From Candidatus Saccharibacteria bacterium GW2011_GWC2_48_9 (GTDB lineage Bacteria > Patescibacteriota > Saccharimonadia > Saccharimonadales > Saccharimonadaceae), in NCBI GenBank assembly GCA_001003725.1, contig LCPR01000001.1, positions 23,410 through 87,409 of the forward strand: 64,000 nt of DNA. The letters are read 5' to 3'. The number at the start of each line of letters is the position of its first letter. The first letter of the stretch is position 1. Positions 27,879 to 47,494 of this stretch are shown piece by piece. The notes under the pieces were generated by a model, which was not told where the DNA came from, did not search any database, and saw nothing but the letters and a program-made list of their open reading frames with translations. The translations under genes were made by a program, and so were the position numbers.

Positions 27879-29000
27879 ATGATAACTCTCAGCGTTTCAG
27901 TGCTTTGTGCACTTGTTGCCGCGGGCGAGATAGCCACGCTTGTGCGCCTACGCCTACTGATGGCTCGCTTTCAAAAGCGGCAAATGATAAGTGCGCCGTC
28001 GATGTTGCGCGACATGCCAAGTGTAAGCGTCTGTATACCTGCACGTAATGAGCGTCATGCAATGACAAGGTGTCTTGAAGCAGTGTTGTCGAGTACGTAT
28101 CCAAAACTTGAAATTATAGTATTGGACGACGAGTCTGTCGACAACACCTCAAATCTCATTCGGGCATTCGCGCATGATGGCGTAAGATTTATTGCAGGTT
28201 CAACTCCACCGAGTGGATGGCTCGGTAAGAACTTTGCGCTTCAATCCCTCGCAGCGCAGGCTAGCGGCACATATGTGCTTTTTCTTGATGTCGATACGAT
28301 TATTTCCCCGTACTCTATCAGTCAAATGGTTGCCTACGCAGAAGCCGAGCAGTCATCGATGATATCGGTATTGCCACAGCGCAGTGACCTTTGGCGGGCC
28401 AGCGTACTACTCGCACCGCTGCGCTACTACTGGCACATAGTGTTTCATCGTACAAGCAGGCCGGTTGTCACGAGCAACGCGTGGATGGTGCGCCGCAAGA
28501 AGCTGCTTGCTGACTTCGAAGGTTTCAAGACCATACGAACAGATGTAGAGCCCGAAGTGACGATTGCTGCGCACTATTATGCCGGCGGTGATTATAAATT
28601 CCTTACGAGTACTCATTTGCTGGGGGTGACGTATGAGAAAAAGATGAGTTCTCAGATAGAGACGGCAATTCGCCTACGATACCCGTCGCTTAGTCGGTCC
28701 ATAGTGCGTTCAATCGGAGCGTCTCTATTGAAAAGTACGGCGGCACTTAGTCCGCTGTTAGCTTTGTGCTATCTGCCGTCTGGCGTATTGCTAGCTGTTG
28801 TGCTGTATGCGCTTGGCTCTATGAGTTATTTGATGTACCTGCAGTTTGTTTGGAAAAAAGGCGCGCTACTTGGCATGTGGTTGTGGCCGCTGGTATTGCT
28901 TGGTGATGCATGGCTCACATTGGTCAGTATGATCCGTTACGAAACACACACGGTCACCTGGAAGGGCCGTTCAATTACTTCGCTGGATCAGCAGGGGTAG
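27879..29000 (+). CDS. Glycosyltransferase family 2
   Basis: VCIPARNE, LDDES.D, GWLGKN, FLDVD. Confidence 0.9.
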   Translation: MITLSVSVLCALVAAGEIATLVRLRLLMARFQKRQMISAPSMLRDMPSVSVCIPARNERHAMTRCLEAVLSSTYPKLEIIVLDDESVDNTSNLIRAFAHDGVRFIAGSTPPSGWLGKNFALQSLAAQASGTYVLFLDVDTIISPYSISQMVAYAEAEQSSMISVLPQRSDLWRASVLLAPLRYYWHIVFHRTSRPVVTSNAWMVRRKKLLADFEGFKTIRTDVEPEVTIAAHYYAGGDYKFLTSTHLLGVTYEKKMSSQIETAIRLRYPSLSRSIVRSIGASLLKSTAALSPLLALCYLPSGVLLAVVLYALGSMSYLMYLQFVWKKGALLGMWLWPLVLLGDAWLTLVSMIRYETHTVTWKGRSITSLDQQG

Positions 29001-31356: not shown

Positions 31357-31916
31357 CTATGATATTTTAATAGAATTACCTTTGATAGTTCTGCGGTCGG
31401 GCACCTGCAGCTGGACGTCGGCGGGTCGATTTGGCTGTGCCAGGCGCCGCAACACAGTCCGTGCTTGCGAGGCAAATGTGTGCTTGCCGCTGATGACGAC
31501 TGCCTTCTCGCTCTCTCCTGGTGCAGTAAATCTGCGGACAAGGTGATCGTAGCGATCTTCTGGCAAGATAAGCTCTTTTGCGCGGTTAACGCGACTTGGC
31601 TTAGATCGGAAGAGCGTCGTGTAGCAAGCTTAGCGAGGTTTTGTCTATCGACTTTGGCTTCGGTACCGCCTTCAACAATAAATGTTTTTTTGGTTTTCAG
31701 GAGTTCGCTTATTTGTAGCCACGACAGATACTCTACTACATGCTGTTCTTCAGGGGAATATGTAGGTGGTGTGGCAATTGCTGCACGTAATTTGTCTGAC
31801 TCAACAAAAGGTGCACTGAACATGTCAGCAAATTTACTTGCAAAGTATGTTTTACCTGCCCCTGGCGTGCCGATAATAAAGACTACATGAGGTGTCGACA
31901 AGCTTAATGATTTCAT
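31357..31916 (-). CDS. P-loop kinase (AAA_33-like), broken by adapter/misassembly
   Basis: GTPGAGKT; natural-looking C-terminus (RRFTAP..VVISGKHTF) lies in another frame after the adapter. Confidence 0.75.
31603..31624 (+). other. Illumina TruSeq adapter fragment (artefact)
   Basis: AGATCGGAAGAGCGTCGTGTAG, 22 nt identical to the start of the TruSeq read-2 adapter. Confidence 0.95.
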
Positions 31917-46710: not shown

Positions 46711-47325
46711 TTCTTTTCCTTCCTCACCCTTGCTGCTAGTATAAGCGCATTTCGCGAACTCACAAGGCCTGGAAACTGCTGCATAAGTGTCGCTTTTCCC
46801 GGCACGAGCGACTTACTCGCAGGGTCCTCTCCGATGAATAGACCCTCATTTCCATATCTGTCTTCGTGGTACACAGCGTCGGTATAGGTTGCGTGAGCCA
46901 TTGCTGCAGCCATATCTCGCAGCTCCTCTTCCTCGACGAGGGGATATAGTTCACTTGATTCTCTTTGAATCATTTTTATCACTGCAGGATTCCTCGTGTA
47001 CGTAGTCAGGTACTCCGGGCTATACTCATTGATTAATGCACGAAGCATAGACGTACCGATACCCTGACGTTGCACAGATGGATGAACTACTCTTCCTGCA
47101 AGTTCAAGCGCTCGCCCGCCAAAGACATCCTCGTATCATAGAGAAAGCCATGAGCCCACCCCTGTCGTGTACAAGTTGAACCATGTCGGCAGTCTGAATG
47201 TGGCTTATACTATCTTCTCGCATTTGAACACTGTCGCCATGGCCAAAGCCGATGCCTGCAAGATGCGCCAGCTGGTCAACATCTTTGTTGGTAAATTGTT
47301 CTGGTGTTTTTGTAGTGGTACGCAT
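46707..47325 (-). CDS. GNAT acetyltransferase split over two frames; candidate +1 programmed frameshift (about 205 aa)
   Basis: Frame 0 from ATG 47325 (SD AAGGAG) to TGA 47104; +1 frame carries LELAGRVVHPSVQRQGIG (motif A) and YTRNPA to 46707. Confidence 0.75.
47118..47133 (-). promoter_or_regulatory. prfB-like +1 frameshift cassette with UGG in the A site
   Basis: Minus strand CGAGGA-TGT-CTT-TGG-C versus prfB AGGGGG-TAT-CTT-TGA-C. Confidence 0.5.
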
Positions 47326-47494
47326 TCTTTTCTCCTTATGCGTTACGATTATAGAAGAGGCCACTGGCGGCCTCTTTTATATTTTCAATTTTTGCATGCT
47401 ATTTCAAAACACAAAACAAGCCGTCCGGAGAAAGGCGGATACGCCAATTTTTGTACTGAGTGGCTGATGCGGTCATACGAAGATAATATACTAA

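Follow-up and report, generated by a model that had tools for sequence, protein, structure and literature searches.

In a 64,000-nucleotide stretch of DNA from Candidatus Saccharibacteria bacterium GW2011_GWC2_48_9 (contig LCPR01000001.1, positions 23,410 to 87,409; hereafter designated the window, in whose numbering coordinates are given unless another locus is named), a gene for a GNAT-fold acyltransferase is divided between two overlapping open reading frames (ORF1 and ORF2), and we put at about 0.87 the probability that a programmed +1 ribosomal frameshift at the heptamer CUU_UGG_C is needed for the full-length protein of ~205 amino acids. This reading, which comes from sequence comparison, is supported by the recurrence of the split in relatives, an invariant site, selection in both frames, the lack of an independent start for ORF2, a junction of the kind encoded by in-frame relatives, and a site that falls within one protein domain.

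ORF1 (frame 0) runs on the minus strand from an ATG at 47325 to 47104 and comprises 73 codons and a TGA stop (47106-47104); a Shine-Dalgarno (SD) sequence, AAGGAG, is read upstream of it on the same strand at 47337-47332. Its translation in the window begins MRTTTKTPEQ and ends MAFSMIRGCLWRASA before the stop, and it holds the N-terminal third of the GNAT fold, that is, beta1-alpha1-alpha2-beta2-beta3. The fused protein takes the first 68 codons (M...CL), and the remaining 0-frame tail, WRASA followed by the stop, has no conservation among relatives. ORF2, also on the minus strand and in the +1 frame, occupies 47120-46707 when counted from GGC (137 codons and a TGA stop at 46709-46707); from this codon onward it reads GGRALELAGRVVHPSVQRQGIG... 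and encodes beta4, motif A and the C-terminal remainder of the fold. The +1 frame itself opens in the window after a TGA at 47138-47136 and reads YEDVFGGRALELAGRVVHPSVQRQGIG...ARVRKEKK to the stop. The sequence of the overlap is CGAGGA (47133-47128), TGT (47127-47125), CTT (47124-47122), TGG (47121-47119) and C (47118). Thus, the heptamer lies at 47124-47118 on the minus strand, with CUU (Leu) as the P-site codon, UGG (Trp) as the 0-frame A-site codon and GGC (Gly) as the +1 codon; UGU (47127-47125, minus strand) would be the E-site codon at the moment of the shift, and the GAGG core (47132-47129) of the SD-like tract CGAGGA (minus strand) is placed 4 nt 5' of CUU. The coordinates and sequences given in an earlier note made from the letters of the window all proved correct on re-reading. 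The same note held that the only start-like codon of ORF2 is a GTG inside motif A and that a shift would give a seamless GNAT of 205 residues. Indeed, the first such codon is the GTG at 47075, within motif A, no ATG, GTG or TTG preceding it in the +1 frame, and the fused 205-residue product clears the cut-off of Pfam Acetyltransf_1 (24.5 bits vs 20.7); ORF1 alone had no Pfam match in the same scan.

The arrangement was compared in 35 loci from independent metagenome and metagenome-assembled genome (MAG) assemblies, representing 29 distinct sequences with 41–96% amino acid identity to the window; 23 of them came from species genomes and metagenomes, and L032-L034, L036, L038, L039, L046, L057, L059 and L066 were then added (L numbers denote loci). 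All 35 loci carry the ORF1/ORF2 split at the same codon, with 67 codons from the ATG to CTT in nearly all relatives and ~138 codons following in ORF2. CTTTGG is invariant in the 29 distinct frameshifted loci, and the seventh base of the heptamer is C in 27 and T in two, the +1 codon being GGC or GGU, respectively. Unlike the heptamer, synonymous sites close by are free to vary: ten codons downstream, in the ELAG motif, Leu is encoded by CTT in 11 loci, CTC in 11, TTA in two, and CTA and CTG in one each, and Gly by GGA in 10, GGG in nine, GGT in four and GGC in three. The recurrence of the same split with the same hexamer in 35 related loci places the feature far beyond chance. Conservation of the split in both halves across Saccharibacteria, and of CTT-TGG-C at the DNA level, was what the earlier note had proposed to look for, and both were found, with C or T as the last base.

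The identifiable matches among species genomes are all Saccharibacteria (Saccharimonadia), including MAGs of the Ca. Saccharimonas aalborgensis type. When the fused sequence was used as the query of a protein search, the matches were C-terminal ORFs only, which begin with a junk stretch translated from the +1 frame and ending ..VFGG. A HMMER search seeded with an in-frame homologue yielded, as clusters at 50% identity, ~45 that hold only the C-terminal part and start at the site, ~12 that hold only the N-terminal part and end ..CLW[RQ].., and ~15 of full length. Pairwise ratios of nonsynonymous to synonymous substitution (dN/dS; Nei-Gojobori, pairs with dS of 0.5-1.3) were 0.03-0.09, at the widest 0.03-0.2, for ORF1 and 0.11-0.21 for ORF2. 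Such purifying selection in both frames indicates that both halves are translated, each in its own frame. Collectively, the gene has the features of a conserved recoding site: both frames are under selection, the break is kept in divergent relatives, and synonymous positions are frozen at the site only. As a separate observation, locus L006, 96% identical to the window, has a 3-nt deletion in ORF2 (within 2701-2800 of that locus) that gives GGRA-ELAGR without the Leu; its shift site is intact, and its 0 frame stays open for 31 codons past the site rather than six.

The position at which the frame must change is narrowly bounded. In the window, L005, L006 and L020, the +1 frame opens just 4 codons before the site, and the 0 frame closes 3 codons past CTT in many loci and 3–6 codons past it overall. 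The overlapping open frames therefore confine the shift to ~7 codons, of which only the heptamer is invariant. Separate initiation of ORF2 was considered and rejected, since five loci (the window, L005, L006, L008 and L020) have no +1-frame ATG, GTG or TTG ahead of the conserved GG.A.ELAGRVV.P segment. Moreover, the Leu-Gly junction (..CL-GG..) predicted in the earlier note is matched by three in-frame relatives, which encode a junction of the type ..C/S-L/I-G-G.. without the extra T, their DNA reading TGT CTC GGT GGG in L002, TGT ATT GGG GGC in L025 and TCG CTC GGC GGC in L027.

The location of the site within the protein was modelled by AlphaFold on the in-frame L002 protein, with an alignment built from ORF1 and ORF2 translations. 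The model (predicted local distance difference test, pLDDT, 96.3; predicted template modelling score, pTM, 0.90) comprises one GNAT domain, in which the site maps to the beta3-beta4 turn at residues ~67-71, between strands 58-68 and 73-81. In a Foldseek search of the PDB with this model, the top 50 matches listed were all GNATs (E ~5e-7; template modelling score, 0.45-0.55), and the fused product has the GNAT motif A, QRQGIG, after beta4. By both fold and motif A, the gene product is a member of the GNAT superfamily; no specific function was assigned, because the NCBIfam scan gave no match and Foldseek returned generic GNATs only. The model thus suggests that a covalently continuous chain would be the natural product of the gene.

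Two in-frame or nearly in-frame homologues depart from the usual form in other ways. L002 lacks the usual stop, and its 36-residue non-conserved C-terminal tail (2770-2881 of that locus) nearly reaches trpS. A close homologue of the in-frame P0023, in L030 (1270-1340) and also in L031, has its break at the beta3-beta4 turn too but of a different kind, a run of nine G (TGC CTG GGG GGG GGT); two independent assemblies give an identical protein sequence. Possible causes are a homopolymer sequencing error, phase variation and another type of shift site. On a quick and poorly resolved family tree, 11 state changes between the in-frame and frameshifted forms are needed, of which the well-supported branches force only one, so that a single origin with several reversions and repeated origins both fit it.

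As regards mechanism, ribosomes would translate ORF1 until peptidyl-tRNA-Leu is on CUU in the P site with UGG (Trp) as the A-site codon. As long as this codon is unoccupied, the tRNA-Leu might re-pair from CUU to UUU, or Gly-tRNA might take the +1 codon GGC directly, and decoding would then resume in the +1 frame to give ...RGCL-GGRALELAGR.... The SD-like GGAG/GAGG tract 3–4 nt upstream probably assists by pairing with the anti-SD of 16S rRNA, as in prfB, and ribosomes that do not shift would stop 3–6 codons on, releasing a fragment of 70-73 residues. The slippage mechanism, the role of the SD-like tract and the efficiency of the shift are what we infer from well-studied precedents. An SD-like core (GGAG, GAGG or GGGG) is present 3–4 nt 5' of CUU in 21 of the 29 distinct loci, so that the upstream purine run pointed out in the earlier note is found in most lineages, though not in all. 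Some tracts are closely prfB-like (AAGGAG-TTA-CTT in L038, CGGAGG-TTA-CTT in L039, CGGGAG-TAT-CTT in L059 and GCGGAG-TAT-CTT in L034); the window reads CGAGGA-TGT-CTT here, and CGGGGA-TGT-CTT is found in its close relatives. Conserved Arg codons overlap with the tract, so that coding constraint is a confounder of its conservation, although CGG is rare among Arg codons in the window (76 of 1062) and does not occur at the Arg of ELAGR. Of the 26 distinct frameshift loci tallied, 19 have UGU or UGC as the E-site codon and the others CAU, UUA, UAU, UCA or CGA.

Several findings weigh against a programmed shift of this kind. In ~8 lineages the SD-like tract is absent or weak (only GAAG, GGAA, GCAG or AAAG), and its spacing varies between 3 and 4 nt; the tract is therefore not obligatory and helps at most. 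RNAalifold, applied to 13 diverse loci, revealed no conserved RNA structure on the 3' side (-1.46 kcal/mol, two invariant pairs, no covariation), and a 3' stimulatory structure was rejected on this result. CUU-UGG is not avoided in the window, where three in-frame cases compare with ~3 expected (66 ORFs). This lack of depletion, together with an in-frame copy in a glycosyltransferase gene, indicates that the heptamer alone is probably not highly efficient. That copy, an in-frame CTT TGG C at 28389-28395 (plus strand) in the ORF of a GT2-like membrane glycosyltransferase (27879-29000), encodes the same LWRAS peptide and has 16 of 17 nt in common with the GNAT site (CTTTGGCGGGCCAGCG), without an SD-like tract upstream; it might be used as a naturally occurring negative control to gauge how efficient the heptamer is by itself. 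A prfB gene was also sought in the window as an internal control, and none is there.

The GNAT gene stands at the head of a trpS-containing unit. On the minus strand it is followed by a gene for a deacylase of the AstE/AspA (aspartoacylase-like) family at 46710-46006, whose GTG start overlaps the ORF2 stop (GTGA), and then by trpS, encoding tryptophan--tRNA ligase (TrpRS), at 46006-44885, whose start overlaps the deacylase stop by 1 nt; the identity of trpS is given by TIGR00233 (265.7 bits vs a cut-off of 176.75). Between the upstream alpha/beta-hydrolase gene and the GNAT gene, a GC-rich hairpin (47350-47381, assigned to no strand) is followed on the minus strand by TATAAT, and the two probably mark a transcription-unit boundary with the GNAT gene heading the unit, although the consensus scan from which this comes is weak evidence. 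The place of the GNAT gene upstream of trpS agrees with the description in the earlier note, and trpS lies downstream of the GNAT gene in at least 19 related loci. The usual intervening gene encodes an N-acyl-amino-acid amidohydrolase, which is AstE/AspA-like in most loci; the deep-branching L032-L034 and L036 instead have an M20 peptidase that is not homologous to it. In L023 and L002, trpS directly follows the GNAT gene. The ORF2 stop and the deacylase start overlap as ATGA or GTGA in 11 loci, and ORF2 of L023 overlaps trpS itself. The GNAT-trpS linkage is also present in the in-frame homologues L002 and L027, and the GNAT gene of one clade (L008-L012, L020) is set apart from trpS by a further gene and a promoter-like sequence.

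The GNAT/amidohydrolase/TrpRS module is kept despite the M20 swap (L027, 1614-3116; L032, 3019-5131; L034, 2934-5052; L036, 3148-5222), which suggests an uncharacterised function tied to Trp, aromatic amino acids or aminoacyl compounds. Among the neighbouring genes, the TrpRS of L027 is fused to a YbaK-like tRNA_edit domain (500 amino acids), and genes for chorismate mutase and prephenate dehydratase lie nearby in L030 and L034, respectively. In a scan of the window at Rfam gathering thresholds, no T-box or other known leader was detected near trpS, the only hits being tRNAs and a ribosomal protein L10 leader (RF00557; 19948-20086, minus strand) that at 46 bits barely exceeds its threshold of 44. 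The window holds one tRNA-Trp(CCA) gene, and Trp accounts for 0.89% of its codons.

Explanations that dispense with recoding, namely a pseudogene, an assembly indel or a split GNAT made as two separate polypeptides, appear very improbable. They gain something from the separate annotation of the halves by gene callers and from an artefact elsewhere in the window assembly, where AGATCGGAAGAGCGTCGTGTAG at 31603-31624, the start of the Illumina TruSeq adapter, is an embedded assembly artefact that probably breaks a gene there; independent assemblies therefore matter as confirmation. However, 35 independent loci share the break, purifying selection is strong in both frames, and the T3 run is not prone to indel errors; moreover, ORF2 lacks any start codon upstream of its conserved beta4 in five loci, and the break falls in a beta-hairpin of a single domain. 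A pseudogene or assembly error was thus rejected on the conservation and the dN/dS values. Marginally less credible still is a correction at the RNA level, by transcriptional slippage or editing that removes one U, or an enlarged-loop tRNA-Leu that reads CUUU as a quadruplet. Either would give an identical protein, but transcriptional slippage needs a long homopolymer (~7 or more A/T) and the run here is only T3, and CUU-UGG stands in frame in ordinary genes, so that obligatory quadruplet reading of CUUU is unlikely.

If the ribosome does shift at CUU_UGG_C, as we propose, two views of what the shift is for have to be weighed. According to one, for which we see close to an even chance, the frameshift is constitutive, of the 'set-ratio' or 'corrective' class recognised in PMC5009743: an ancestral 1-nt insertion at the shifty CUU-U would have been tolerated and then fixed, and the site would yield a fixed low amount of full-length GNAT and sense nothing. 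The in-frame relatives work without a shift, and the interspersion of in-frame and frameshifted forms on the family tree hints that the state flips easily. The split is, however, kept across ~45 clusters at 50% identity, beyond dS saturation, and the extra conservation of the +1 codon and of the SD-like tract argues for selection on a signal rather than mere tolerance. According to the other view, which was also that of the earlier note and which we hold as a tentative minority opinion, the site would sense Trp-tRNA: a low level of charged tRNA-Trp would leave UGG unread and raise +1 shifting, so that more ribosomes would enter ORF2 and more GNAT and, via the stop/start overlaps, more deacylase and TrpRS would be made; such feedback would resemble that of a T-box or an attenuator. 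Consistent with such sensing, UGG is in the A site of all 29 distinct loci, and +1 shifting at hungry codons is an established phenomenon in E. coli (PMC2377451, PMC5009743). Downstream, trpS is retained in nearly every locus, even where the M20 amidohydrolase replaces the deacylase, and no T-box or other Rfam leader lies near it. The ATGA/GTGA overlaps chain ORF2 to the deacylase gene and then to trpS, and in L023 to trpS directly; with such translational coupling, ribosome flux through ORF2 could feed downstream translation. In addition, the Gly is invariant in frameshifted genes, with GGC or GGU as its codon, whereas the turn varies in in-frame relatives (..CLGG.., ..RRDGYGSN.., ..LERPQA.., ..LAEPAA..); Gly/GGC being fixed only in frameshifted genes, the constraint appears to be on the signal and not on the protein. 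Against sensing, CUU-U followed by a Gly codon GGN gives UGG automatically, so that conservation of UGG is partly forced and is not independent evidence. The GNAT-trpS linkage is equally found in the in-frame L002 and L027 and is therefore independent of the frameshift, the clade of L008-L012 and L020 has its promoter-like sequence and gene interposed, and CUU-UGG is not avoided elsewhere in the window. On balance, a constitutive set-ratio role seems somewhat more likely than responsiveness to Trp-tRNA. The fullest form of the latter, a natural hungry-codon sensor in which tRNA-Trp charging sets both the shift rate and the output of GNAT, deacylase and TrpRS in the amino-acid-auxotrophic, host-dependent Saccharibacteria, is in our estimate unlikely; if true, it would be the first conserved bacterial aminoacyl-tRNA-responsive frameshift making a functional trans-frame protein, and a case of aminoacyl-tRNA synthetase operon control without a T-box.

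In the full-text literature we found no account of a CUU-UGG site or of frameshifting in Saccharibacteria or Patescibacteria, subscription journals being mostly outside this scope, where an earlier report is possible. To our knowledge, programmed +1 frameshifts in bacterial chromosomes are very few once prfB and the genes of phages and mobile elements are set aside, and the classic efficient +1 frameshifts that we know of all have a stop codon in the A site. The present site, with its sense Trp codon, spans a broad Saccharibacteria radiation (the ~45 protein clusters noted above) and heads a trpS-containing unit. It also bears on annotation, since gene callers in the public protein collections searched split such genes into two ORFs or fragments, and on physiology, because it may make the hungry-codon trans-frame question directly testable. 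The conservation of GNAT, an N-acyl-amino-acid amidohydrolase (of AstE/AspA or M20 type) and TrpRS as a trio points to an uncharacterised Trp/aminoacyl pathway in obligate epibionts, and the case should interest both recoding specialists and those concerned with the biology of the candidate phyla radiation (CPR).

Among known systems, the nearest in bacteria is prfB, whose site AGGGGG-UAU-CUU-UGA-C has been analysed kinetically in terms of CUU-U slippage, the SD and a weak E-site codon (PMC2377451). The GNAT site has the same slippery codon, CUU in the P site followed by U (CTTT in 29 of 29 loci), on which tRNA-Leu could re-pair to UUU; in most loci (21 of 29) an SD-like tract lies 3–4 nt upstream, with relatives reading even CGGGAG-UAU-CUU and GCGGAG-UAU-CUU; and it resembles prfB further in its weak E-site codon (UGU/UAU), in the C after the A-site codon, in a functional +1 product and in deep conservation. 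In contrast, the A-site codon is UGG (Trp) in every GNAT locus, whereas that of prfB is the stop codon UGA, so that the shift would compete with Trp-tRNA and not with release factor 2 (RF2). Nor is autoregulation by the product evident in the GNAT case, and the shift occurs at codon 68-69 within a folded domain rather than near the N-terminus as in prfB, in an unrelated gene family. Thus, of the prfB-like +1 shift that the earlier note had proposed for this gene, the shift itself is strongly supported by the comparative checks, whereas the A-site UGA and the RF2 logic are not shared; lacking this defining feature, the GNAT site is not a member of the prfB class.

In yeast-type sites, the +1 shift of Ty1 and ABP140 at CUU_AGG_C, with GGC as the +1 codon (PMC5009743), shares with the GNAT site the heptamer form CUU_NGG_C, an A site that holds a sense codon, the +1 codon GGC and the lack of a 3' RNA structure, and ABP140 also has a 0-frame stop within a codon or two. 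The GNAT site differs in being bacterial, in its UGG being read by the sole tRNA-Trp rather than AGG by a rare tRNA-Arg, in its proposed slip onto UUU rather than UUA, and in having a probable SD-like stimulator, a feature specific to bacteria. With the hungry-codon shifting described in E. coli by Gallant and colleagues, it would share a +1 shift made while an A-site sense codon awaits a scarce aminoacyl-tRNA; those shifts, however, are error events at ad hoc sites or reporters, whereas the GNAT site is conserved and required for the product. A 2016 review of recoding considered that starvation-type hungry-codon shifting could give functional trans-frame proteins, of which 'no examples are known' (PMC5009743). 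The idea that a +1 shift can be both sensor and effector for a metabolite of the product's own pathway is that of antizyme, a polyamine sensor, which differs in being eukaryotic, in having an A-site stop codon and pseudoknot and nascent-peptide modulators, and in that its sensing was shown experimentally. The GNAT site is best read as a bacterial cross between the prfB and Ty1 sites in which the A site holds a sense codon, that for Trp.

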